NCBI GenBank assembly: GCA_046153645.1
Contig: JBJXGI010000042.1
Location: 93,097-157,096, forward strand
Direction of reading: 5' to 3'
Length of the DNA: 64,000 bases
DNA from: Elusimicrobiota bacterium
GTDB taxonomy: Bacteria > Elusimicrobiota > Elusimicrobia > F11
The first letter of the stretch is position 1, and each line of letters begins with the position of its first letter. Positions 3,200 to 58,653 of this stretch are shown one piece after another. A program made the position numbers and the translations under genes. The notes under the pieces are model-generated. The model did not search any database and was not told where the DNA came from. It saw only the letters and a program-made list of their open reading frames with translations.

Positions 3200-3766
3200 C
3201 TAGAACTCTACTTTGGGAACGGCTTTGGCTTCAGGCGCAGCTTGAAAATATGTGTCTTTGGGTTTAAAACCAAAAAAACCGGCGACAACGTTTCCAGGAA
3301 ACTTTTTAACCAAAACATTAAAGTTTTGAATGGTTTCATTAAAACGCATTCGCTCAACCGCAATTCTGTTTTCAGTGCCAGCCAATTCATCTTGAAGCGC
3401 CATAAAATTGGCATTTGATTTTAATTGTGGGTAATTTTCCGCCACAACCAATAAACGTGAGAGGGCACTATCAATACCTTGATTGGCTTGAATTTTGTCA
3501 GACACAGTTCTGGCACCTGCCAATTTAGCTCTGGCTTCAGCAATTTGAGTGAAAATTTCATTTTCTTGCTTGGCATACCCTTTAACAGTGTTAACCAAAT
3601 TCGGAATTAAGTCTGACCGGCGTTGCATAACATTTTCAACTTGTGCCCAACTGGCAGTAATCGCTTCTTCTCCCGCCACCATTTGATTGCGAGGCCCAAT
3701 AATAAATGCTCCCGCCAAAACAACCAAACCAACAAGCACGCCTAAAACAACTAATACTTTCTTCAT
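3200..3766 (-). CDS. lemA: LemA family membrane protein
   Basis: N-terminal transmembrane helix followed by the conserved LemA core (SWAQVENVMQRRSDLIPNLVNTVKGYAKQE ... ENYPQLKSNANFMALQDEL). Its stop codon abuts the photolyase gene. Confidence 0.8.
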   Translation of the reverse strand: MKKVLVVLGVLVGLVVLAGAFIIGPRNQMVAGEEAITASWAQVENVMQRRSDLIPNLVNTVKGYAKQENEIFTQIAEARAKLAGARTVSDKIQANQGIDSALSRLLVVAENYPQLKSNANFMALQDELAGTENRIAVERMRFNETIQNFNVLVKKFPGNVVAGFFGFKPKDTYFQAAPEAKAVPKVEF

Positions 3767-3780
3767 TTTTTTCTCCTTCC

Positions 3781-26167: not shown

Positions 26168-27547
26168 ATGAAAAATACAGAAAAAAATCACTTTTCGTTG
26201 TATTTCAATTATTTGTTTCTTATCTCATTGGTTTTACTGTTTTCATGGTGCTTTAGTTACGTTATCACTAGACTCCATATTATTCCACTAACTCTACTAT
26301 TAATTACTTTAACCTTATGGTTTATAAAACCTAAATGTGCATTTGGATCAGTCCTATTTTTTGCGCCATTGCTCCCAAACTACCTCCAGAGCCCCTTAAT
26401 AGAAGCGCATCTTTTACTTTTGTTTATCCTTTGGATATCTACAAATCAAAAAAAAATTGTCGATCATATGAGCCGTAATGCCATATTAAAATTTCTCACA
26501 CTACTAATTGGATTCCATGTATTTATTTTCATTGTTTTAAACCCTGAAACGGAAAATATTTTAATGAATTGGGTAAAAATTCCTTATTACATTTTTACAG
26601 ATGCGGGTTGGGAAAATTTAAGTTTTAGGTTAAGTTTTACTATTCTAGAAATTTACACGCTCATTCTTTTTATTCATTCCACCTTTAACAAAGATGATTT
26701 GAATTGGATTTCAAAAATTTTAATGGCTTCTTTTTTTATTGTATGTTTAGCGTCAATAAGACATAACAATATCCTCACCAATTGCACTTTTATCTCACCT
26801 CGAACCATTCGAATTAAAGCTCAGTTTACTCATCCGAATCTACTTGCTTCATATTTGATAATGGTTATTCCCTTATTTTTTAACTGGATAAATAAATTTA
26901 AATTACTCTATTTCTTATTTTTCACTCTTGGTGTTATTGCGCTTATATTCACTGGATCAATGGGTGGTGCTATTGCCTTTTTCATAGGAATTTTAATCTA
27001 TTGTTTGTCTCTTGAAAAATTAAGAAGATCCCATATTTTTAAAATTCTGGTCATTTCTCTTATTTTTATTTTACTCATGATTAGTGGCAAGATTATTCAT
27101 GAGAAGATTAAAAGTATTGGGCTTCAATCTGCTAGTCATGGCAGACTCTTTATTTGGCGAAGTGCCTTCTCGAGTATTAAAGAAAACCCCCTATTTGGAA
27201 CTGGCCTAGGAACCTCTCATCAATCTATTAAAAAATATTATTTTTATCCTGAGGGAGGAGATCATTTATACCCTCATGCTCATAACATCTACATTGATGC
27301 GCTCCTTCAAACTGGGATATTAGGTGGAATTTTGTCATTCATTCCCTTTGGATATATATTCTGGAAGAAAAAAGGATTATTAAGAGATCAGAACACCTCA
27401 ATAGAAAAAGCATTTTTTATTGGACTTATAAGCATACTCATACATAGTATTTTTGACTCAACACCCTGTTTTTTCATTATTTCATTTTTAATGGCTATAT
27501 TTTTTTCATTTTTATCCATGAATGAAAAAGTATTCCGGGAATCTTGA
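26168..27547 (+). CDS. O-antigen ligase/polymerase-like (Wzy_C family) polytopic membrane protein
   Basis: About 12 transmembrane helices. A periplasmic loop follows the helix FTGSMGGAIAFFIGILIY, as in the WaaL/O-antigen-ligase family. Confidence 0.5.
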   Translation: MKNTEKNHFSLYFNYLFLISLVLLFSWCFSYVITRLHIIPLTLLLITLTLWFIKPKCAFGSVLFFAPLLPNYLQSPLIEAHLLLLFILWISTNQKKIVDHMSRNAILKFLTLLIGFHVFIFIVLNPETENILMNWVKIPYYIFTDAGWENLSFRLSFTILEIYTLILFIHSTFNKDDLNWISKILMASFFIVCLASIRHNNILTNCTFISPRTIRIKAQFTHPNLLASYLIMVIPLFFNWINKFKLLYFLFFTLGVIALIFTGSMGGAIAFFIGILIYCLSLEKLRRSHIFKILVISLIFILLMISGKIIHEKIKSIGLQSASHGRLFIWRSAFSSIKENPLFGTGLGTSHQSIKKYYFYPEGGDHLYPHAHNIYIDALLQTGILGGILSFIPFGYIFWKKKGLLRDQNTSIEKAFFIGLISILIHSIFDSTPCFFIISFLMAIFFSFLSMNEKVFRES

Positions 27548-27596: not shown

Positions 27597-28787
27597 ATGT
27601 CAACTGAAATACCCCCTACAGCAGTACCAAGAAAAATGGTTCTTATTGTTGATGATGATCTCATCACCAGAGAATTATTCGCTGAATACTTAAGAGACAA
27701 CGGCTTTGGAATTGTTTTAGCAGAAAATGGCAAAACCGCCTTAAAACTCATTGATGAAAAACGCCCCGATATTATTCTTTTAGATGTCGTTTTACCTGAC
27801 ATGAGCGGTTATGACGTCATTAATGAACTAAAAACAAAACAACAAACAGCAAACATTCCTATCATCATGTGCACCGCCAACAACTCCAAACCTGAAGATA
27901 AAATTAAAGGGTTTAAATATGGAGCAGATGATTATCTGATTAAACCTTTTGAATTAGCCGAACTTCATGCTCGCATGCTGGCTGTGATGAGAAGATCACA
28001 AACAACAATCAAACCAGAAATGTTGAAAGGAATTTATGATGTACTTTCAAAAAAAAGTGAAGAGGTGCCTCTTGCTAAACCATCACCCGTCACTATTCCT
28101 GCGAATATAGCAACGCCACCAATAGAAGAAATAACACCTTTTGAAAGTACTCGATCAGAAAAGATTGACACAAAATCTCATCAGAAAAAAATTAATTTAT
28201 TTCACAGAATCTGGGAAATTCTAGTTTCCCCCAAAGAAGTTTTTAAATCTATAAATCCAGAACGAGATTTTTTAATTTCGTTACTAATTGTTTTTTTAAC
28301 ACCATTTACGGATAGTTTGGCCCAACTATTTAAAGGAGCGTCTCATTTTGATGCCTGGATTAGTTCAATTTCATTGGGATTGGTTATTAATGCCATTATG
28401 TGGATTGGAATAGGTGGAATATTAACTTTGGTTCTGCCTTTTTTTGGAAGACACTTAGAAATGAAAGAGGCACTCATCTTATCAGGAATATCATGGGTCC
28501 CAAGACTTTTAGGCGCAATTTTAACAGCCATTTATGGATCAATACAAATTGTTTCCTATATGCTAGATCGGAAAGATTTTTCTGCAGGTATTGACCTCAT
28601 TCCTTACTTGCCAAACAGTTCATGGGTTCAGTTTTTCTCTCAAGTGAGTGTTTTCGACCTCTGGTCGACTTGGCTTATTCTCTTAGGAATGTGGCATATG
28701 ATCGACGAAGATACAGCAAAATGGAATATTGGGACAATTATTATTGGGGTTATATGTTTAGCCTTTGGTACCCTAACAACCTATTAA
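27597..28787 (+). CDS. Response-regulator receiver domain fused to a Yip1-like five-helix membrane domain
   Basis: REC domain (MVLIVDDDLITRELF...IILLDVVLPDMSGYDV...KPF), a roughly 60-aa linker, then five transmembrane helices. The stop is 1 nt before the TolC-family gene. Confidence 0.7.
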   Translation: MSTEIPPTAVPRKMVLIVDDDLITRELFAEYLRDNGFGIVLAENGKTALKLIDEKRPDIILLDVVLPDMSGYDVINELKTKQQTANIPIIMCTANNSKPEDKIKGFKYGADDYLIKPFELAELHARMLAVMRRSQTTIKPEMLKGIYDVLSKKSEEVPLAKPSPVTIPANIATPPIEEITPFESTRSEKIDTKSHQKKINLFHRIWEILVSPKEVFKSINPERDFLISLLIVFLTPFTDSLAQLFKGASHFDAWISSISLGLVINAIMWIGIGGILTLVLPFFGRHLEMKEALILSGISWVPRLLGAILTAIYGSIQIVSYMLDRKDFSAGIDLIPYLPNSSWVQFFSQVSVFDLWSTWLILLGMWHMIDEDTAKWNIGTIIIGVICLAFGTLTTY

Positions 28788-28788
28788 A

Positions 28789-30273
28789 ATGATGAAAACG
28801 ATGAAACCTTACAAAAGTTTTCTGATTTATTTGAGTTATACATTATTTATTTTCTCTCAATTATTATCCGCGTCAGATTCAAAAGACGCCTCAATCCATC
28901 CCATTTCAATTGAAGAATTCACAAAAAAAGCTCTCCAAAACAGTCGTCGATTTGAATCCGCAGTTGATTCTCTAGAAAGTTCTCGTTATGGACTTCTAGA
29001 AACGACCCGAGGATTAACTTGGCCAACACTCTCAGCCTCTGCAGAAACCAATAAATCTTTCAGTGATAATGATCTGGGAAGCGAAACGACCACGAAATCA
29101 AATGAAGGCTCACTCAGCTTAACGCAGCCGGTACTGACCGGAACCCTTTTGTCTTTAAGCAGTACTTGGAGTCAGTCAGATGCTGACACAGAATATTTAA
29201 ACGACACAACCCATTCGAAAACTCGACTAAAACCAAGTTGGACAGCATCTATTAAACAACCTCTTTATATCTTTAATCGGAACAATTCACTGAGAACCAG
29301 AAAACAAGCCCTTATTCAATGGGCCTCTAACCGTTCTAACTATCAAGCTGAATCACTGGGAATTGAATTTGATGCTCGTGTTACCTACTATAATTTACTT
29401 TTATTACAGGAAAGCTCCGCCGTAGAAAAGAGAAAATTGGAATCAGCAAAACTTGTTTATAAAGTCACCAAAGCTTTGGTGAATGCTGGGAAATTAGCTG
29501 AAGTTGAATCAACCCGGGCTGACCTTCGTATGAATCGAGATTTGAGACGAATTCAGAATTCTGACTATAACTTAGAAAAAGCTTTCAATGAAGCACGCGA
29601 CTTTATTCGACTTCCCATCAACAGTAAAATTATTCTCACCTCAAAGTTAACCTATATTCCATTTACTTGGGATGAAAATGAACTCATCAAGATTGCCTTA
29701 GAAAACAATCCGCAGTTATTAAACTCCAAACGGAACCTGGAACTTTCTGAAATAAATTTGGCCCAAACAAAAGAAAGCAATAAACTAAAACTAACAGCCA
29801 GCGGCTCATATTCCAAAACTCGAAATCGCTCAGACTTAAACGCGCCCCTCGATCCCTATTCGTGGACACTGGGCTTGGGTGCTACCTGGCCCTTATTTGA
29901 TGCGACTCAGACAAAACTGAATGTTAAGCAGAGCCAACTTTCTTTAAAAAACACCCATAGAAGCTACGAAAAACAAGAAAGCCAATTAAAAATTGATATC
30001 AAAAATTCGGTCCTCGAAATTAAAAGAACAGAAACACAAATAAAAGAATTCGCCGAACAAAAAAAGAATGCGGAACAAAATGTAGAAGCCATGCGTCTTC
30101 AATACAGAAATGGACTAACACGTCTCACCGATGTCTTTGACGCAGAAAACGAAATGCGGGATTTGGATTTAGAATACCTAAATTTACTCGTTAACTATAA
30201 CCGCTCTAAGGATAATCTCAAAGTGCTTGTCGGCCTAGATTTTGAACAAGTTAATTTTGGAAATAAAAAATGA
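28789..30273 (+). CDS. TolC-family outer-membrane efflux protein
   Basis: Signal peptide and the duplicated TolC helical-repeat pattern. Overlaps the next gene by 4 nt. Confidence 0.75.
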   Translation: MMKTMKPYKSFLIYLSYTLFIFSQLLSASDSKDASIHPISIEEFTKKALQNSRRFESAVDSLESSRYGLLETTRGLTWPTLSASAETNKSFSDNDLGSETTTKSNEGSLSLTQPVLTGTLLSLSSTWSQSDADTEYLNDTTHSKTRLKPSWTASIKQPLYIFNRNNSLRTRKQALIQWASNRSNYQAESLGIEFDARVTYYNLLLLQESSAVEKRKLESAKLVYKVTKALVNAGKLAEVESTRADLRMNRDLRRIQNSDYNLEKAFNEARDFIRLPINSKIILTSKLTYIPFTWDENELIKIALENNPQLLNSKRNLELSEINLAQTKESNKLKLTASGSYSKTRNRSDLNAPLDPYSWTLGLGATWPLFDATQTKLNVKQSQLSLKNTHRSYEKQESQLKIDIKNSVLEIKRTETQIKEFAEQKKNAEQNVEAMRLQYRNGLTRLTDVFDAENEMRDLDLEYLNLLVNYNRSKDNLKVLVGLDFEQVNFGNKK

Positions 30274-31325
30274 AAGTTATTCTAAAAACATTAGGAATTT
30301 TTTTCGTATGCGGTGTATTGCTCGGACTCAATTTTTATAGAGACATAAAAAACACATCAACAAAAATGAAATGGTTTACAGTTGAACAAAAAAATCTTTA
30401 TAGAGGAGTGGCATCTCCAGGAATTATTGAGGCTTTAAATATTAGCGTTATTAAATCCCAAGTTGACGAATTTGTTCAAAAAAAATGGGTAAACGAGGGT
30501 GATCCAGTAAAAAAAGGGCAAGTACTCATGGAATTAACTCAAGATAAAATTCGTATTGATTATGATCAAAGTCAACTAAACTACAACAACACTATTAATG
30601 AATATAAAAAAGCTCTTAGAGAATTTACCATTCAAAAAAAGTTGTTTATGAGTAAAGCGGTTGCCAAAGCCCAAGTAGAAGAAGCTGAACGAAACGTAGA
30701 GAGATCAAAATCAAGCAGAGATATTTCAGCGCAACAATTTAAATTAGTTGAAGAAAAATTAAAAAGTACCACAGTCTTAAGCCCGATAGATGGGATTGTT
30801 TTAAAAGATCATACCAAGCCCGATATTCCAATTACTTCCGGGAAAGAATTATTTACAATAGGCGACGTCTCTCAATTCATTGTTCGTACAAAAATAGATG
30901 AATTAGACATGAACCAAATTAAACTGGGCTTACCAACAGCAATACAAGTAGACGCCTTCCCCGATAAAAAAATAGAAGGTGTTGTTAAATCCATCGCTAC
31001 TCAGGCAGAAAGAGAAGCTTTCGCGAAATTAGAAGTATTGATTGATATTGTTGATGATGGTGGCGTACAACTCAAACACAATCTTTCTGTAAAAACAATT
31101 ATCAGAAGTGAAGAGATTCCCAATGCTATTGGGATTCCCGTTCCTGCCATTATTAGAAAAAAAGGAAATCAAGGATGGGTTTTAGTTAAAAATACATGGA
31201 ACCTCATCCAAGAAAAAACCGTGGAATTAGGATCTCCTGCAGGAGAACTCATTGAAATTAAATCAGGACTTAAATCTGGAGATGAAGTAGGAATTCCTTC
31301 TATCGGTGAAGCGGATTTAAAATGA
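30270..31325 (+). CDS. Efflux periplasmic adaptor (HlyD/MacA membrane-fusion protein)
   Basis: N-terminal membrane anchor, a coiled-coil hairpin, and a lipoyl/beta-barrel-like C-terminus. Overlaps its neighbours by 4 nt. Confidence 0.75.
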   Translation: MKVILKTLGIFFVCGVLLGLNFYRDIKNTSTKMKWFTVEQKNLYRGVASPGIIEALNISVIKSQVDEFVQKKWVNEGDPVKKGQVLMELTQDKIRIDYDQSQLNYNNTINEYKKALREFTIQKKLFMSKAVAKAQVEEAERNVERSKSSRDISAQQFKLVEEKLKSTTVLSPIDGIVLKDHTKPDIPITSGKELFTIGDVSQFIVRTKIDELDMNQIKLGLPTAIQVDAFPDKKIEGVVKSIATQAEREAFAKLEVLIDIVDDGGVQLKHNLSVKTIIRSEEIPNAIGIPVPAIIRKKGNQGWVLVKNTWNLIQEKTVELGSPAGELIEIKSGLKSGDEVGIPSIGEADLK

Positions 31326-45208: not shown

Positions 45209-46591
45209 TTGAACTCCCATACATATAATTCTACCGATACAATTACAGCCATTACAACGCCCATGGGTGAAGGTGGTCTTGGGGTTATTCGAGTTTCAGG
45301 ATCTCAAGCGATAACCCTTTCCTCTCAAGTTTTTAAAAAATCAGGCCATTCTTTATTAACTGTTCCTTCTCATACCCTTCATCATGGATGGATTCATAAC
45401 AATGGAAAAATGATAGATGAAGTGATAGCGGCTGTTTTCCATGCACCACATTCCTATACAGGTGAACATATTATTGAGTTTTCATGTCATGGAAGCCCTG
45501 TTATCTTAAAAGAAATTCTTTTGCTCTTAATTGAAAGAGGTGCTCGCCAAGCATTACCAGGCGAATTCACTCAAAGAGCCTATTTGAATGGGAAAATGGA
45601 TCTAATGCAAGCTGAATCAGTCGCGGAACTAATTCATGCTAAATCTTTTGAATCGGCCCAAGTGGCATTTGAGCATCTAAGAGGAAATTTAAGTTCGCGC
45701 TTAAAAAAAATTCAAACTTCACTGATTGATTTGTTAGCTCATGTGGAAGCAAATTTAGATTTTGTTGAGGAAGATATTCCACCTCTACAAAAACAAGAAA
45801 TGATTGAAAAAATCAGTCAAATTAAAAAAGAGATAGAGACTATTTTAGCCACCAGTGTTCGTGGCAAGGTGCTCTTAGATGGGGTGAAGGTTGTTTTGGC
45901 CGGCGAACCAAATGTTGGGAAATCTTCTTTGTTTAATGCGTTATTATCTCGAGATCGAGCGATTGTCACTCATATTCCCGGAACAACTCGCGATGTTTTA
46001 GAAGATTCAGTTGTTTGGGAAGGATGGCCAATTCTTTTGCAAGATACCGCTGGCCTAAGAAATTCTATAGATCAAGTTGAACAAGAAGGGCAGCGCCGGG
46101 CGAAAGAGGCTCATAATCAAGCAGATATAATTCTATATGTTATTGACGGGTCAATTAACGTTCTTAATATTGATTTGGTTTTAAAAGAATTTGATTCTAA
46201 AAAAACCATTATTGTTATTAATAAGTCTGATACTTTTTCTAATAAAAAAACTTTTAATATTCCTTCTTCATATCAACAAATTCAAACTTCAGCTAAATCA
46301 GGAGAGGGAATTAATGATTTGATGAAAGCGTGTTTAAATCTTTTGACAAAGAAGATTGGCGTGCCTGCTGCAGAGGGAATTGTTCTCACTCAAGTAAGGC
46401 ATATTCATCATATGGAAAAGATAAATGAACATTTAGGAAGGTCAGTCATCAATGCTGGAAAAAATCAAACAGAAGAAGCCTTAAGCTTGGATTTAAGATC
46501 TGCTCTTGAAGAACTTAGCCAAATGACAGGAGAGTCTATTAATGAGCAGGTGCTTGATTCTATCTTTCGTCAGTTTTGTATAGGAAAGTGA
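45209..46591 (+). CDS. mnmE: tRNA modification GTPase MnmE. TTG start at 45209 with SD GGAG 5 nt upstream; the ORF-track Met at 45155 is inside yidC.
   Basis: N-terminal DTITAITTPMGEGGLGVIRVSG, G-domain GEPNVGKSSLFNALL ... DTAGLR ... NKSD, and the C-terminal CIGK tetrapeptide. Confidence 0.93.
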   Translation: MNSHTYNSTDTITAITTPMGEGGLGVIRVSGSQAITLSSQVFKKSGHSLLTVPSHTLHHGWIHNNGKMIDEVIAAVFHAPHSYTGEHIIEFSCHGSPVILKEILLLLIERGARQALPGEFTQRAYLNGKMDLMQAESVAELIHAKSFESAQVAFEHLRGNLSSRLKKIQTSLIDLLAHVEANLDFVEEDIPPLQKQEMIEKISQIKKEIETILATSVRGKVLLDGVKVVLAGEPNVGKSSLFNALLSRDRAIVTHIPGTTRDVLEDSVVWEGWPILLQDTAGLRNSIDQVEQEGQRRAKEAHNQADIILYVIDGSINVLNIDLVLKEFDSKKTIIVINKSDTFSNKKTFNIPSSYQQIQTSAKSGEGINDLMKACLNLLTKKIGVPAAEGIVLTQVRHIHHMEKINEHLGRSVINAGKNQTEEALSLDLRSALEELSQMTGESINEQVLDSIFRQFCIGK

Positions 46592-46608
46592 TAAACTTTT
46601 TAATTGAG

Positions 46609-47325
46609 ATGAAACAAACAATTCTTTTTCTTTTCGATTTAGATGGAACCCTGGTCACAACGGGTGGCGCAGGGCTTCGTGCTTTAGGGAAAGTTTTTCA
46701 AGAGCTTTATAATATTCAAGATGTTTGGAGTTCCATTAATCCCAGTGGAAAAACCGATCACGCTATATTTAGAGAAATCATTCATAAATTTTTGGATCGT
46801 CCCATGTCAGACAATGAAATTAAGCCCATCGCCGAAAAGTACATAAGTTATTTGGATCACGAAATTAATAGTACTCCCCATCATGTAAAACCGTTGAAGG
46901 GAGTCATTGAGTTTTTAGATGAATGTAAAAAGAAAACACATATTTTTTCTGCCTTAGGGACCGGGAACCTCGAACAAGGGGCTCGAATTAAACTAAAACC
47001 AACAGGGCTTAATGATTATTTTGAATTGGGAGGATTTGGTTCTGATGCTGAGGCTCGATACGAAGTGTTAAAAGCAGGCCATGCAAAAGTTGAGGAGAAA
47101 TTAGGAGCCACCATTCATCCTGATTATGTGTTTGTTTTGGGCGATACAATATTGGATGTATCAGCAGCAAGGAAAGCTCAATTTAAAGCCGTCGCTATTG
47201 CCAGTGGTGGAAGTTCATATGCCGAACTCGAAAGATCCAAACCAGATTTTCTATTTCAAGATATGAATGACGCATTAAAACTTTTGGATGCTATCGATAA
47301 TTTAGATACTCTTACTCCTGCATGA
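46609..47325 (+). CDS. HAD-superfamily hydrolase. Likely start MKQTILF at 46609.
   Basis: Motif I FDLDGTLV and the C-terminal DT..D motif (LGDTILDVSAARKA). Confidence 0.7.
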   Translation: MKQTILFLFDLDGTLVTTGGAGLRALGKVFQELYNIQDVWSSINPSGKTDHAIFREIIHKFLDRPMSDNEIKPIAEKYISYLDHEINSTPHHVKPLKGVIEFLDECKKKTHIFSALGTGNLEQGARIKLKPTGLNDYFELGGFGSDAEARYEVLKAGHAKVEEKLGATIHPDYVFVLGDTILDVSAARKAQFKAVAIASGGSSYAELERSKPDFLFQDMNDALKLLDAIDNLDTLTPA

Positions 47326-49598
47326 AAGATTTAAGTGCCTTTCTCATTACAACCGGTCGTACCTTAGCACAGATGGCACTCTACGCTCCTGATCATCCGG
47401 CTGTCAAAAACATGGTTGATGAATCCCATCAGGCGCTAACAAAGATTTTGACACAAGAATCTGAGTTGATCCTTTCTTCGATTGAAGGAAAAATTCTTGT
47501 TAATGGTCAACCCGCAGAAGAAGTTCCAGAAGCAGCACTCCGGCCTTTTTTGGTTATTATTAATACCTATGGTTTACATAGCATGGGTTTTCTAAAAGGC
47601 ATTACTCGTGATGAAATGGTGGCTTTTTTTCGCCTTTCTTCAAATCAAGAACTAAAAAAAGGGGCGATTGACTTATCAGGATATCTTGAGACCAACAGCA
47701 TAAAATCCATTCAGCTTAACCAAGCTCGTTACGCCAAAATTAAAGAAGGGGAACAAGTTGGTCATAATAATTCTCTTTCTTCTCCCTCAATTTCCGATCA
47801 AAAAGTAACTGTTGAACAATTTGAACATTTACCTTTAAATGATGTGATTTCAAAACTCATTCAACAAGCGATTCCCGATCCTGCTATTCAGGCGCTTCTT
47901 ATTGCTAAAGTTCTCGATTTAGTTAAAAAAGAAATTGATAGCGCTATTGAAAAAGTTGTCAAAGAATTTAACAAAGAAAAACTACGAATTACCAACGAGA
48001 GAGAAAGAACAGAAGGTGTTTTAACCAACATGGCCGATGGTGTGGTGGTTGTTGACGAAGCGGGTCGCGTTCTTATGATGAATCCGGTCGCTGAACAAAT
48101 TTATGGCGTTAAGTTGGGTGATAGTCTTGGTAAGCCGCTGTGGGAAGGGGTCCGGGGCGAACAAATGGTGGCCTTGGCCAAAGATTTAACTCTTCCCACT
48201 GAACAACCCATAACCAAAGAAGTAAGCATCCTTGGTGATGAAGATGTCAAAAAAACATTAAGAGCCAGTCAGGCCACCGTGCAAGATGTCAATGGTCGTG
48301 TGGTCGGTATGGTTTCTGTGGTATCAGATGTCACAAAACAAAAAGAACTTAATCGTCTTCAAACGGAATTTATGGCCAATGTCACTCATGATTTACGTTC
48401 CCCTATTCATGCTATTAAACTTTCCGTGGCTGCTATTTTAGAAGGAGCCGCTGGGCCCACAACACCTGAGGCCAATAAAATGTTAACGGTGGCCAACAAA
48501 AATATAGAACGGCTTTCTCGCCTTATTAATGACCTTCTTGATTTTTCAAAAATTGAATCTGGCCGCATGGAGATTAATCAACAAGAGGTAGAAATTGAAC
48601 CGCTTTTACAAGAAGCAGCCAGTAGCATGGAATCTTGGTCCAAAAGCCGTGGAGTATTTATTTCAGTTGAGAAATCAGGAACCGCGCTTCCTACTTTTTC
48701 TGATAGTGATCGAATTCTGCAAGTTGTGAATAATCTTATCTCAAATGCCATTAAATTTACTCCCGCTGGAGGAAACATTAAATTAAGAGCTATAAACACC
48801 CAGGAAAATGGAAAGAATTTTGTTATGGTTCAGGTAGAAGATTCTGGAAAAGGAATTTCAGAAGAAGATCAAAAAAGAATTTTTGAACGTTTTGTTCAAT
48901 TAAAACAAAATGAAAAACACGATATTAGAGGAACGGGGTTGGGTTTAAGTATTTGTCGAGCTTATATTGATTTGCACGGAGGAAAATTGTCCGTTCAGAG
49001 TCCCGTTCCAGGTGGGTCTTGTGGAACCGTTTTTTCTTTTACGCTTCCAGCTATGGAAAGAAGCGCTTCTGTTCAATCTCCACTGCCACCTTTTTTTGAG
49101 CCTTATCAACAAAAATCAAACAAAAAAGGATTTTGGAAGAATTTTTTTAGATTGGGTATTTGGCTTTTTATTGGTTTTATGTTTTCTTCTCAAGTGTGGG
49201 CACGCCCTTATTCAGGCTGGGTACGACGTGTATTATCGCCCAATCTCATTCAACTTCGAGATGGAACCACGGTTCGATATCTTGGTATTCAAACACCTGA
49301 ACAAAATAGTCCTCTCTATGCGGAAGCTGTAGCAGCCAATCGATCTTGGATTGAAAACAAAGAAATACAAATTCGCTATGGTTCACAAGAACGCGATACC
49401 ACCGGTGCTTGGTTGGGATATGTTTTTGTGGAAGGAATCTTGGTTAATGAGGAATTGGTTAAAAGTGGAATGGCCACTGTTTCTCGATTACCAAATGAAA
49501 AAGGATATTTACCTCAATTGTTATCAGCAGAACGATACGCTCGGCGTAAGAAAAAAGGTTTTTGGAGTGACGCTGCCATTCCCGCACTCAATCCATGA
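47322..49598 (+). CDS. PAS sensor histidine kinase fused through a signal-peptide-like transmembrane helix to a C-terminal degenerate SNase (thermonuclease-like) domain
   Basis: PAS domain (MADGVVVVDEAGRVLMMNPVAEQIYG), HisKA (FMANVTHDLRSPIHAI) and HATPase_c (DSGKGISEEDQKRIFERF..GTGLGLSI). A hydrophobic segment FFRLGIWLFIGFMFSSQVWA-RP follows. The SNase-like domain reads LRDGTTVRYLGIQTPE ... GFWS, so IDGDT is replaced by RDGTT and GIDTPE by GIQTPE. Confidence 0.75.
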   Translation: MKDLSAFLITTGRTLAQMALYAPDHPAVKNMVDESHQALTKILTQESELILSSIEGKILVNGQPAEEVPEAALRPFLVIINTYGLHSMGFLKGITRDEMVAFFRLSSNQELKKGAIDLSGYLETNSIKSIQLNQARYAKIKEGEQVGHNNSLSSPSISDQKVTVEQFEHLPLNDVISKLIQQAIPDPAIQALLIAKVLDLVKKEIDSAIEKVVKEFNKEKLRITNERERTEGVLTNMADGVVVVDEAGRVLMMNPVAEQIYGVKLGDSLGKPLWEGVRGEQMVALAKDLTLPTEQPITKEVSILGDEDVKKTLRASQATVQDVNGRVVGMVSVVSDVTKQKELNRLQTEFMANVTHDLRSPIHAIKLSVAAILEGAAGPTTPEANKMLTVANKNIERLSRLINDLLDFSKIESGRMEINQQEVEIEPLLQEAASSMESWSKSRGVFISVEKSGTALPTFSDSDRILQVVNNLISNAIKFTPAGGNIKLRAINTQENGKNFVMVQVEDSGKGISEEDQKRIFERFVQLKQNEKHDIRGTGLGLSICRAYIDLHGGKLSVQSPVPGGSCGTVFSFTLPAMERSASVQSPLPPFFEPYQQKSNKKGFWKNFFRLGIWLFIGFMFSSQVWARPYSGWVRRVLSPNLIQLRDGTTVRYLGIQTPEQNSPLYAEAVAANRSWIENKEIQIRYGSQERDTTGAWLGYVFVEGILVNEELVKSGMATVSRLPNEKGYLPQLLSAERYARRKKKGFWSDAAIPALNP

Positions 49599-50476
49599 CA
49601 GTTCTTTCAGCAGACCAACCTGTTTGGTCTAAATCTCGTGTTTCCACGTTTAAAGAATGCCAGCGAAAGTTTCTCTTTTCTGGGCCAACCATCAACAGCT
49701 TTAAGATAAGTGAAGAAACAAAAACCGAAGTTCTTCGGCTCAAAAAAATAAAAAACCGTTTTCTTTGGACCGGTTCATTTATTCATGAGGCTATTGGTCA
49801 TCTTCTCAAACAAGTTCGTCAGGGAGAGAAAGTTTTTGATATCGAGGAAATCTTAAGTAAGTTCAAAATTTCCATGCGAGAACAATTTGTGAATTCAAAG
49901 TCACAGACGCTTTCCGCCAGTCGTCTTTTTGAACATGAATTTCAAATACAGATCGCTCAGGAAGAATGGAAAAGGCAGTGGGACAATGTAGAAAAAACAA
50001 TTCGGTGGTTTTTTCAATCCAGTTGGTTTTTGAAACTTAAAGATTTAGGGCCTGAGAGTTGGAAGGTTATTGATGAGGTGGTCCGTTTTGAATTAAACGG
50101 AACACAGGCTTACGCCAAAATTGATTGTGCCGTTGAGGTGAAAGGAAATTTTTTCCTTATTGATTGGAAAACCAGCTCATCAATGGAGAGTTCCGCTTTA
50201 AAAGTTGCCGCACTTTATTCTTTTGAGCAATGGGGTGCCGATCCTTCCAATGTGCAGGCTCACGCGGTTAATTTATTTACAGGCAAATCTGAACGGATTG
50301 ATATTGATGAAGACGCACTTATGGAAACTCAAATGAAAATTGAAGAGGAAGCCGCTCAATTATTTGAAGCCCAAACTCAATTGGGCGATGATCCGTTAAA
50401 ATTGCCTATGGCCTCTTCACAAGCTTGTTTACAATGTTCCTATCAAAAAATATGTCATCCCAACGGAATTCTTTAG
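49595..50476 (+). CDS. PD-(D/E)XK nuclease with a Cas4-like four-Cys cluster
   Basis: Core IDCAVEVKGNFFLIDWKT (D..EVK). Cys residues are the N-terminal ECQRK plus the C-terminal CLQCSYQKIC (C-x2-C-x5-C). ATGA start/stop overlap with the kinase gene. Confidence 0.6.
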   Translation: MTVLSADQPVWSKSRVSTFKECQRKFLFSGPTINSFKISEETKTEVLRLKKIKNRFLWTGSFIHEAIGHLLKQVRQGEKVFDIEEILSKFKISMREQFVNSKSQTLSASRLFEHEFQIQIAQEEWKRQWDNVEKTIRWFFQSSWFLKLKDLGPESWKVIDEVVRFELNGTQAYAKIDCAVEVKGNFFLIDWKTSSSMESSALKVAALYSFEQWGADPSNVQAHAVNLFTGKSERIDIDEDALMETQMKIEEEAAQLFEAQTQLGDDPLKLPMASSQACLQCSYQKICHPNGIL

Positions 50477-50491
50477 AACTTTCACTCTCCC

Positions 50492-51076
50492 ATGGACGCT
50501 TATTTCCAATTCAAAAAAAATCTCATTGAATCCCATTGTTCTAAATGTACTGATTTATGTTCTGGTCGAACGAACATCGTTGTTGATCGAGGCAATCCGG
50601 CTGCCAAAATAATGATTATTGGAGAGGCTCCTGGGGCCAATGAAGATTTAACGGGACAGGCATTTGTGGGTCGCGGAGGAAAATTATTAGATGCTCTTCT
50701 CTCCTCAGTTGGAATTCAAACGAATACCGATACTATTATCGCCAACGTTGTTAAGTGTCGTCCTCCCAACAATCGGCCACCCACGCAAGCAGAAGCCGAC
50801 CATTGTTTACCTTATTTGAAAGAACAAATTAATTTAGTTAAGCCGAAAGTAATTTTGCTTTTAGGCGCTACAGCCGCCAAACATTTAATCCCCGAACATA
50901 AAGATAAAAGTATGAAAGAACGAGTGGGAAAATTTTTTGATTTACCTGAATACCCACAAATTAAATTTCAAATTTTATTTCATCCCGCCTATATATTGCG
51001 TGATCCTAGAAAAAAGAAAGACATGTTGGAGCATTTAGGGTTTCTAAAGGAAATGCTAGAAAAAAGTAACGGTTAA
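50492..51076 (+). CDS. Family-4 uracil-DNA glycosylase (Fe-S type)
   Basis: N-terminal Cys cluster CSKCTDLCSGRTNIVV and motif A IMIIGEAPGANEDLTGQAFVGRGGKLLD. C-terminal HPAYILR. Confidence 0.85.
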   Translation: MDAYFQFKKNLIESHCSKCTDLCSGRTNIVVDRGNPAAKIMIIGEAPGANEDLTGQAFVGRGGKLLDALLSSVGIQTNTDTIIANVVKCRPPNNRPPTQAEADHCLPYLKEQINLVKPKVILLLGATAAKHLIPEHKDKSMKERVGKFFDLPEYPQIKFQILFHPAYILRDPRKKKDMLEHLGFLKEMLEKSNG

Positions 51077-57717: not shown

Positions 57718-58073
57718 TGAATTGGTTTATGTGGGGATGTTTTCAGCTGGCGCTTGCAGTTATATTGGGCGCTTTTGGAGCTCACGGCCTTAAAAATAAA
57801 GTAACTCCTGAATTATTGGTGATATTTGAAACAGGAAACCGGTATCATTTTTACCATGGTTTTGCTTTATTAGTGACAGGGATTTTAAGTTTTATTAAAA
57901 ATGGAACGCAAATCAACACAGCTGGAATTTTGTTTACGATTGGAATACTCATTTTTAGCGGCTCTCTTTATTTATTAACACTCACCGGCGTTCGTTGGTT
58001 GGGAGCCATTACTCCGATAGGGGGGTTGTCTTTTATTGTTGGCTGGATTTTTCTCGCAATAGCGGCTCGTTAA
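57717..58073 (+). CDS. DUF423 family small membrane protein
   Basis: Four transmembrane helices. The N-terminus reads LAVILGAFGAHGLK. Confidence 0.6.
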   Translation: MNWFMWGCFQLALAVILGAFGAHGLKNKVTPELLVIFETGNRYHFYHGFALLVTGILSFIKNGTQINTAGILFTIGILIFSGSLYLLTLTGVRWLGAITPIGGLSFIVGWIFLAIAAR

Positions 58074-58653
58074 CTAATTTCACTTCCATTGTTTTATCTT
58101 TCCAAAGTCCCCGTTTCTCTTTCCTGGCTTCTTGCTCTAATTTTCTAAAGGGCTCTAAATATTTGTAAGGGTATCGACTAAACGCTCTCGCGTAACCTGC
58201 CTCGATAATAAGTGCATTTAAAAACCCTTTTTCATAAGAGTCGCGTTCACAAACTTCTTCGGCTAATTCAAAGTCTAAATTCCCACAGTCTTTTGGTTCA
58301 AAATAAACATAAGCCAGGATTCGACCATGACGATCTTTATGACCGGTGACTTTATTGGCCACTTCATATTCGAGTCGTATACTTTTACCTTGGACCAATT
58401 TTTTAACAAATTCAGAAGATTTTCTTCCTAAAGATTGAATTACTTGAACGTCCCGACGTGTGCGCGCGGCATCTTGATTTAATTTCTCAGAAGGGTGAAC
58501 TTCAGGAGTATCGATTCCAATCAGTCGAACACGTGTGTTGTTGGTTAAAAGAAGAGTGTCACCATCGATGACGCGTTTAACACGGACGGTTGTTTCACCG
58601 TAAGCGATATATGAAAAAAATAAACAACCAATGAGAACGAGGGGTTTTCTCAT
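58033..58653 (-). CDS. Secreted thermonuclease (staphylococcal nuclease homologue)
   Basis: Signal peptide followed by canonical VIDGDTLLL...VRLIGIDTPE...RDVQ...DRHGRILAYV..GLW. Confidence 0.85.
   Translation of the reverse strand: MRKPLVLIGCLFFSYIAYGETTVRVKRVIDGDTLLLTNNTRVRLIGIDTPEVHPSEKLNQDAARTRRDVQVIQSLGRKSSEFVKKLVQGKSIRLEYEVANKVTGHKDRHGRILAYVYFEPKDCGNLDFELAEEVCERDSYEKGFLNALIIEAGYARAFSRYPYKYLEPFRKLEQEARKEKRGLWKDKTMEVKLVNEPLLREKSSQQ

Follow-up and report, generated by a model that had tools for sequence, protein, structure and literature searches.

The window analysed here is a stretch of 64,000 nucleotides from an Elusimicrobiota bacterium (assembly GCA_046153645.1, contig JBJXGI010000042.1, positions 93,097 to 157,096 of the forward strand). 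Its plus-strand gene 47322..49598 encodes an orphan sensor histidine kinase that continues, within one uninterrupted open reading frame (ORF) of 758 aa, through a signal-peptide-like segment into a domain with the fold of staphylococcal nuclease (SNase). The reading that we favour, with a probability of about 0.6, is that this single polypeptide represents a conserved fusion innovation of one uncultivated Elusimicrobiota clade, in which the membrane-targeting tail of a kinase was turned into the signal or anchor for an exported, non-catalytic module. The gene product is an exact match to an NCBI protein of an Elusimicrobiota metagenome-assembled genome. Taken singly, the histidine kinase, the SNase fold and the signal peptide are of known kinds; what is unusual for a histidine kinase is the way in which they are arranged. 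A literature search of incomplete coverage found no description of a kinase-SNase fusion, of a histidine kinase with a MinD-like tail, or of the motif strings reported below.

A single gene with a conserved junction

The same architecture is present in related genomes. Thirty-three further protein clusters (90%-identity clusters) carrying all of it, PF00565 included, were found at 50-60% identity and 99% query cover, with lengths of 745-795 aa. Together with the window protein they make up an orthologue set of 34 sequences, with NCBI, JGI, ENA and Logan assemblies as sources, to which the conservation figures given below refer; the junction is in frame in every aligned member. The surroundings are also maintained. 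On two long contigs (L001 and L002) the gene order is yidC, mnmE, (x), HAD hydrolase, kinase, (PD-(D/E)XK nuclease), family-4 uracil-DNA glycosylase (UDG), UPF0158 and glycerate kinase, the PD-(D/E)XK gene being present in L001 and absent in L002. In the latter, the kinase gene cluster adjoins dnaA/dnaN. The succession of HAD hydrolase and kinase genes is kept in both contigs and in a third locus, L087.

A preliminary description of this stretch, made from the sequence alone, had already read positions 47322..49598 as a single kinase-to-SNase frame without an N-terminal transmembrane (TM) segment, had offered an in-frame gene fusion as one account of it and had recommended looking for the same architecture in related genomes. 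The frame is indeed free of interruptions, the 33 clusters provide the relatives, and the fusion is now placed at what appears to be the ancestral C-terminal amphipathic tail of the kinase. The same description had named orthologues encoded as two separate genes as an observation that would speak against the fusion. This situation was encountered on one contig only, and the junction there looks secondarily decayed. This 4.6-kb JGI contig (L087), which retains the synteny with the HAD hydrolase, has separate gene calls for the kinase (P0037) and for the SNase part. Over positions 3690..3770 the two parts still share one frame, split by two TAG codons, one in place of the W (TGG) of the FW motif and the other in place of the Q (CAG) at position -2 of the AxA site. 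The h-region is degraded to NKVLTMLLSDEMD and a P->L change is also seen; G->A or C->T transitions could account for all of the junction changes. Further downstream, the SNase-like ORF of 150 aa is intact. Judged from its sequence, the locus looks like a case of secondary junction decay (pseudogenising), or of damaged reads or a damaged contig, and not like an ancestral arrangement with two genes.

A sequencing or assembly error, or a missed stop, that had joined a kinase gene to a separate gene for a secreted SNase could appeal to the two calls in L087. However, the parts of that locus lie in the same frame and show, with their two TAG codons and degraded h-region, the pattern of secondary decay, and the same in-frame junction is found in 34 clusters from four data sources, together with a conserved motif, h-region and ARP. 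Nor is an internal start for a separate secreted protein indicated by a conserved Met or by an SD-like (Shine-Dalgarno-like) sequence in the window, L001 or L002, which is a weak test in a genome where SD use is low. Because the in-frame junction and the synteny recur across independent assemblies, an artefact is for practical purposes excluded.

The kinase half of the protein has the following layout. The N-terminal part (residues 1-135; 47322..47726) is an alpha/beta domain with the motif GRTLxQMxLYxxxHPxV, modelled by AlphaFold2 (AF2) with a predicted local distance difference test (pLDDT) score of 84-90. It matched no Pfam family, and a PDB sequence search gave no relative (best E 0.95). 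This domain is common to the fused kinase and to a series of unfused homologues (P0038-P0120), and is likely an uncharacterised cytoplasmic input or regulatory domain of a large Elusimicrobia kinase family. It is followed by a PAS domain (residues 228-341; 48003..48344; Pfam PAS/PAS_4/PAS_9), by the HisKA or dimerization and histidine phosphotransfer (DHp) domain (residues 347-414; 48360..48563; Pfam HisKA E 6e-17) and by the HATPase_c or catalytic and ATP-binding (CA) domain (residues 461-577; 48702..49052; Pfam E 1.5e-28). The H-box NVTHDLRSP holds the phospho-acceptor H356, which is invariant in the orthologue set, as is T355. The N, G1, F and G2 boxes are intact, with N471, N475, D507, G509, G511, F521, F524, G537, T538, G539 and G541 invariant. 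In Foldseek comparisons the kinase core was matched to HK853 (TMt 0.73), and kinase cores dominated the matches of a full-length fold search.

Before residue 600 no TM segment is apparent, the Kyte-Doolittle maximum being 1.41 (19-residue windows, threshold 1.6), which agrees with the preliminary description. The protein therefore departs from the canonical layout of transmembrane sensors (TM1-periplasmic domain-TM2-HAMP-DHp), since its only membrane segment follows the CA domain. An identity as PhoR, WalK or PnpS was considered and rejected on the NCBIfam scores (PnpS 256 against a cutoff of 400, WalK 248 against 725, PhoR 208 against 334).

The signal-like segment and the SNase-fold module

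Beyond the CA domain, a disordered and variable linker (residues 579-597; 49056..49112; AF2 pLDDT <50 for residues 581-605) leads to the signal-like segment. Measured over residues 579-604, this linker has a mean pairwise identity of 0.22 and a length of 23-31 aa among the orthologues. Next comes a basic amphipathic motif, KSNKKGFWKNFFR (residues 598-610; 49113..49151), which constitutes the n-region of the segment and reads F-W-[KSR]-[RK]-[LI]-F in 34/34 fused proteins. The h-region and c-region, LGIWLFIGFMFSSQVWA (residues 611-627; 49152..49202), were recognised by their uncharged span, the small residues at -1/-3 and their hydrophobicity, and end in an AxA-type site, VWA|RP. The segment KKGFWKNFFRLGIWLFIGFMFSSQVWA|RP covers residues 601-629, with V625 at -3 and A627 at -1, and the hydrophobic, secretory-signal-like stretch with an AXA site that had been noted earlier is thus confirmed.

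The signal-peptide call is rule-based, relying on the charge of the n-region, an h-region of 7-15 residues and small residues at -3 and -1. The window protein, with an n-region charge of +5, the h-region LGIWLFIGFMFSS and the site V-W-A|R, conforms to these residue rules for a Sec signal peptide. It departs from the N-terminal location of such peptides, the segment starting at residue 598 of 758. Among the orthologues, the net charge of the n-region ranges from +2 to +7, and the uncharged span to the conserved Ala measures 14-20 aa (median 15), often with Pro/Gly breakers. An A occupies position -1 in 33/34 sequences; at position -3, 25/34 have A, V or S and the other 9/34 have L or Y. 'A-R-P' is nearly invariant, and the mean pairwise identity of the hydrophobic segment is 0.31. 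In alignments, the segment also falls in the position of the signal peptides of free-standing thermonucleases.

A Hessa-scale sum, which is a crude and position-independent measure, lies between +1 and +7 kcal/mol for the kinase segments (median +4.2), to be compared with +3.3 for the signal peptide of a separate secreted SNase encoded in the window and with -2.6 for YidC TM1. The hydrophobicity of the segment is therefore like that of the secreted SNase signal peptide and unlike that of YidC TM1, a true TM helix. AF2 models one continuous helix of 21-23 residues (residues 605-625) that spans the motif and the h-region. From its sequence, the hydrophobic segment could act as a marginal signal-anchor or else as an internal signal peptide that is open to cleavage. 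Export by the twin-arginine translocation (Tat) route was rejected; a twin arginine (FWRRLF) occurs in few orthologues only, most of them having KK, KN or SR.

The domain that follows (residues 628-750; 49203..49571), which is predicted to be exported, has a securely assigned fold. Its residues 650-750 score 56 bits with Pfam SNase (PF00565; gathering cutoff 21; E 6e-15), and a PDB profile match to S. aureus nuclease was obtained at E 3.5e-20. The AF2 model of the C-terminal part alone has a pLDDT of 89.3, and its best Foldseek matches in the PDB are S. aureus nuclease variants (TM-score 0.83, root-mean-square deviation 2.4 A, E 5e-11).

The active site, in turn, is degenerate. This had been the conclusion of the preliminary description, although half of the motif evidence cited for it was wrong. 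The change of GIDTPE to GIQTPE is real, D40 of SNase corresponding to Q657. The supposed change of IDGDT to RDGTT stems from a register error: IDGDT aligns with LSPNL (residues 638-642), both when the module is aligned by profile with S. aureus nuclease and when BLASTP pairs it, without gaps, with the secreted SNase of the window; RDGTT is the beta-hairpin turn that comes next. In this register, SNase positions D21, R35, D40, T41, E43 and R87 correspond to N641, R652, Q657, T658, E660 and A696, respectively. Both Ca2+ ligands, D21 and D40, are lost, and two of the five core catalytic residues (R35 and E43) are left. The residues that contact deoxythymidine 3',5'-bisphosphate (pdTp), namely K84, Y85, R87, Y113 and Y115, are all replaced.

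The orthologues share this pattern, with at most three of the five core residues in 33/34 sequences. D21 is retained in 10/34, D40 in 10/34, E43 in 7/34 and R87 in 1/34, the last position showing at least nine different replacements across the clade; R35 is kept in 33/34. The scaffold positions P42, G86, Y91, G107 and A109 are invariant, as is a family-specific tryptophan, W697. The domain has a constant length of 123 aa and a mean identity of 0.59, the mean pairwise values for the other domains being 0.55 (N-terminal domain), 0.71 (PAS), 0.77 (DHp) and 0.61 (CA). Because its identity is close to that of the CA domain and its length does not vary, the SNase-like domain is, by these measures, under purifying selection comparable to that on the kinase. 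Moreover, since the catalytic positions appear relaxed while the scaffold is invariant, it is best described as a putative pseudo-nuclease in which the fold is kept and the catalytic residues are lost. On average the exported module carries a net charge of ~+1, with extremes of -7 and +10.

A further feature was noticed at the C-terminal end, in the sequences P0020-P0034. Most orthologues extend 15-45 residues past the SNase fold and carry there a conserved PYPVRxQKKxGFPWASxEEIKRGIKK tail, which is absent from the window protein, P0002 and P0003.

Origin of the fusion and competing explanations

The kinase is a member of a family of TM-less kinases, widespread in the Elusimicrobia, that normally end in an amphipathic basic motif. 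The more distant homologues P0038-P0120 (35-47% identity, ~600-690 aa) comprise the N-terminal domain, the PAS domain and the kinase core without SNase, and almost all of them end, after a variable Pro/Ala-rich linker, in the tail PWWKKLLGLK-COOH; SWWQRLFGS, PWYKRLFGG and GFFSRLFGRAK are among its variants. The pattern W-W-K-[KR]-L-[LF] is found among the final 20 residues of 80/83 unfused homologues, usually 3 from the end. In all 34 fused proteins the F-W-[KSR]-[RK]-[LI]-F motif lies comparably far from the CA domain and precedes the AxA alanine by 18-22 residues; the linker is about equally long in the fused and unfused groups. Because the same motif is thus found at an equivalent distance from the CA domain in both groups, sequence comparison identifies the n-region of the signal-like segment as the old C-terminal tail of the kinase.

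Other possible origins were considered. That the unfused homologues P0043, P0046 and P0052 (loci L004, L085 and L086) could be syntenic orthologues with an SNase gene of their own further downstream was rejected. They lie in another conserved context, in which a UDP-glucose/ManNAc dehydrogenase gene immediately precedes the kinase gene and an opposite-strand gene for a ComF-like phosphoribosyltransferase follows it, with no SNase nearby, and they form a separate orthologous group. A recent duplication of the secreted SNase gene of the window (58033..58653) was likewise rejected, its product and the kinase module being 24% identical.

When the profile of the module was run exhaustively over 1.84 billion cluster representatives, 29,340 SNase matches were obtained, of which the best 150 were inspected. 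Among these 150, the kinase-linked family was represented only by P0025 and the fragments P0123, P0124, P0129, P0199 and P0266, with kinase sequence in P0123 only; the other matches were ordinary thermonucleases, secreted or multi-domain, whose catalytic motifs are intact. Searching with the C-terminal module as a single sequence returned the contig-edge fragment P0121 only, a metagenome scan one close locus and otherwise ordinary nucleases, and a genome contig scan, keyed on generic kinase motifs, unrelated kinases. As a separate observation, the unrelated protein P0128 (849 aa), from the search of the representatives, combines an N-terminal Swt1-like HEPN domain and an internal hydrophobic segment (~193-216) with a lamin-tail domain and as many as three SNase domains, that is, another arrangement of cytoplasmic domain, membrane segment and exported SNase.

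In the scenario that we propose, the unfused kinases are, as we infer from their tails, peripheral membrane proteins held by a MinD/FtsA-type membrane-targeting helix, and the ancestor of the window kinase would have been of the same kind. In the fused clade, this tail would have been joined in frame to a secreted thermonuclease gene, more precisely to the hydrophobic core of its signal peptide. The tail would then form the positive n-region of a Sec-type signal, followed by the short h-region and the AxA|RP site. The kinase would remain cytoplasmic, the hydrophobic segment would insert N-in/C-out, and the SNase-fold domain would be exported to the periplasm. This orientation is suggested by the need of the kinase for cytoplasmic ATP and by the n-region, which is the more positively charged of the two flanks of the segment. 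Once exported, the domain would act as a non-catalytic binding module (a pseudo-nuclease) and not as an enzyme. Two outcomes appear about equally likely. In one, the domain would stay attached through a signal-anchor and would fix, localise or cluster the kinase by means of a periplasmic ligand, in analogy to PknB-PASTA kinases. In the other, signal peptidase I would cleave A627|R628, leaving a tail-anchored kinase and a soluble periplasmic pseudo-nuclease. Classical transmembrane signalling by helix piston or rotation is, on the structural model, unlikely, because only a disordered, variable linker off the end of the CA domain joins the module to the kinase, with no helix to the DHp domain.

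A number of observations weigh against this scenario. An R at +1 and RR at +8/+9 give a net charge of +1 to +4 just past the segment, and positive charge in this position is unfavourable for Sec export in E. coli; the secreted SNase of the window likewise has a basic stretch, VRVKRV, past its signal peptide. The L or Y found at -3 in 9/34 orthologues is poor for signal peptidase I. The membrane-targeting role of the tail is read from sequence resemblance, and the hydrophobic moment of PWWKKLLGLK is modest (0.24, at the low end of a 0.24-0.76 range, against 0.45 for MinD). The direction from unfused to fused would follow from the distribution of the two forms and not from a rooted tree, and the occurrence of kinase-SNase fusions elsewhere was judged from the best 150 of 29,340 SNase matches. 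Furthermore, the L087 junction is broken by its two in-frame stops, and one orthologue, P0003 from a Logan assembly, is the only fused protein to have kept D21, R35, D40, E43 and R87 together, so that nuclease activity may have persisted in its exported domain.

If signal peptidase I always cut at A627|R628, the protein would be a pure polyprotein with independent halves, and the fusion would serve co-expression or co-delivery only. This fits well with the nearly invariant A at -1, the small residue at -3 in 25/34 sequences, the short h-region with its Pro/Gly breakers and a hydrophobicity at the level of a cleavable signal peptide, insufficient for a stable TM helix. It fits less well with the long maintenance of the fusion, which extends to 50% identity with no return to two genes in 34/35 loci, with L or Y at -3 in 9/34 sequences and R at +1, or with the continuous 21-23-residue helix that AF2 places over motif and h-region. 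On balance we hold obligatory cleavage to be possible but doubtful. A classical extracytoplasmic sensor, a role that the preliminary description had suggested for the domain, and in which the SNase-like domain would bind extracellular DNA, RNA or nucleotides and switch the kinase allosterically across the membrane, is less probable still. All of the nucleotide-binding residues K84, Y85, R87, Y113 and Y115 are lost, the charge of the module is not consistently basic (-7 to +10), and the CA domain is followed by a disordered, non-conserved linker with neither HAMP nor a continuous helix into the DHp domain. These points outweigh, in our opinion, the conserved and exported-type nature of the domain and the retention in 33/34 sequences of R35, the 5'-phosphate-binding arginine. 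The genomic context has been read both ways: a secreted SNase with intact motifs (58033..58653) and DNA-repair genes (PD-(D/E)XK and UDG) are found nearby, but the neighbouring genes are of housekeeping type, close to yidC/mnmE/dnaA. Similarly, the nearest types for the kinase core are PhoR, PnpS and WalK, but the PhoR and PnpS models stay below their cutoffs. Nucleic-acid sensing by the SNase-like domain as such is a possibility that these observations do not directly support.

Also improbable, to about the same degree, is that the exported pseudo-nuclease would be an extracytoplasmic receptor (e.g., for extracellular DNA, oligonucleotides or another anionic polymer) in an 'inverted' topology, signalling by ligand-driven clustering or tethering and born from the conversion of a MinD-like tail into a transmembrane signal-anchor. 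Finally, the C-terminal domain might be a membrane-bound active nuclease that degrades nucleic acids at the cell surface, with the kinase as its anchor or regulator. The complete set of core residues in P0003, and R35 and E43 in the window protein, would be in line with such an activity, but the window protein has the changes D21N, D40Q and R87A, and the 33/34 orthologues with three or fewer core residues display the many different replacements expected of relaxed constraint; this alternative is accordingly very unlikely. A conserved fusion, with the former tail of the kinase serving as signal or anchor for a non-catalytic exported module, is the reading that we retain.

Gene neighbourhood in the window

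The kinase gene is tightly packed between its neighbours. Upstream, the stop codon of a gene for a HAD-family hydrolase (46576..47325, plus strand; Pfam match) overlaps the kinase start in an ATGA. Downstream, another ATGA joins the kinase stop to the start of a gene for a PD-(D/E)XK nuclease of Cas4/AddB-like type (49595..50476, plus strand; Pfam PDDEXK_1 E 3e-10), which has a C-terminal Cys cluster and is translationally coupled to the kinase through this overlap. The conserved neighbour encoding a family-4 UDG (50492..51076, plus strand; Pfam UDG E 8e-35; NCBIfam UDG_fam4 180 bits against a cutoff of 125) comes next and is followed by a gene for a UPF0158 protein. The secreted thermonuclease used for comparison lies outside the fusion on the minus strand (58033..58653; Pfam E 7e-19). 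It had been called a bona fide secreted SNase from the start, and rightly so, having a signal peptide and intact IDGDT, GIDTPE and HGR motifs.

An anti-phage defence system was considered and rejected. PADLOC matched no system, and the synteny, near dnaA, yidC and mnmE, is that of housekeeping genes. PADLOC gave weak generic domain matches only, to HATPase and to SNc+LTD (E 3.6e-7 and 2.8e-5), and its Cas4-like match of the neighbouring nuclease is a generic PD-(D/E)XK match.

No receiver (REC) domain that could belong to a cognate response regulator was found within ~19 kb of the gene in the window, and none is adjacent to it in L001 or L002. The kinase is an orphan in this respect, and the lack of an adjacent response regulator does not exclude its membership among histidine kinases. 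The only response-regulator ORF in the 64-kb window (27597..28787, plus strand) unusually combines a REC domain (15-126) with a Yip1 membrane domain (206-390), and is situated between an O-antigen-ligase-like gene (26168..27547) and genes for a TolC-like OEP and HlyD (28789..31325). With TolC-like OEP and O-antigen ligase genes in the window, the cell envelope looks diderm.

Relation to known systems

With the HisKA-family PAS kinases (PhoR, WalK, PnpS and HK853) the window protein shares the PAS-DHp-CA core with all catalytic boxes. In contrast to PhoR, WalK and PnpS, it lacks N-terminal TM helices, a periplasmic loop and HAMP, has a novel N-terminal domain, carries its membrane and extracytoplasmic part on the C-terminal side of the CA domain and has no adjacent response regulator. 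To S. aureus nuclease and the bacterial thermonucleases (PF00565) it is linked by the OB-fold with three helices and by a signal-like segment in the same position before the domain. It differs from them by the loss of D21, D40, R87, K84, Y85, Y113 and Y115, by the family-specific W697, and by a 'signal peptide' that is internal, ~600 residues away from the N-terminus.

The membrane-targeting sequence of E. coli MinD is KGFLKRLFGG (PMC5471200). Both the unfused PWWKKLLGLK and the fused GFWKKLF appear to share with it a FLKRLF-type pattern of two hydrophobic, two basic and two hydrophobic residues followed by Gly, and in the unfused homologues the tail, as in targeting sequences of the MinD/FtsA type, is C-terminal, after a flexible linker. 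In the window protein, by comparison, the motif is internal and now serves as the n-region of a hydrophobic segment; the likeness does not imply homology of the host proteins.

Whatever the function of the exported domain, the evolutionary trace is clear, the terminal PWWKKLLGLK tail of ~80 relatives recurring as an internal n-region in the fused clade. As read here, the locus would show a route by which a single fusion step leads from a peripheral membrane protein to an integral or exported one, and it flags a large Elusimicrobia kinase family as probably membrane-bound via a MinD-like tail. If the domain stays attached, the protein would be a histidine kinase with a PknB- or ToxR-like topology, in which an extracytoplasmic module lies C-terminal to the catalytic domain. 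The repertoire of two-component input designs would be wider than thought, and a bacterial pseudo-nuclease would join the ligand-binding pseudo-enzymes. An inverted receptor, with the kinase first and the sensor last, would, if real, be an input architecture previously undescribed for two-component systems.

PknB-PASTA Ser/Thr kinases, ToxR/CadC and RseA-type anti-sigma factors consist of a cytoplasmic domain, one membrane segment and an extracytoplasmic binding domain. Their N-in/C-out order is the one predicted here, and regulation by localisation or ligand-induced clustering is plausible by analogy. However, they possess robust TM helices and are not histidine kinases, whereas the segment of the window protein is of signal-peptide grade and may be cleaved. 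As for the module itself, eukaryotic Tudor-SN (SND1) contains non-catalytic SN-like domains in which the SNase fold serves as a binding module. Tudor-SN is cytoplasmic or nuclear and built of tandem repeats; its likeness to the window protein is one of fold only, with no evidence of a shared ligand, or of shared ancestry beyond the fold.

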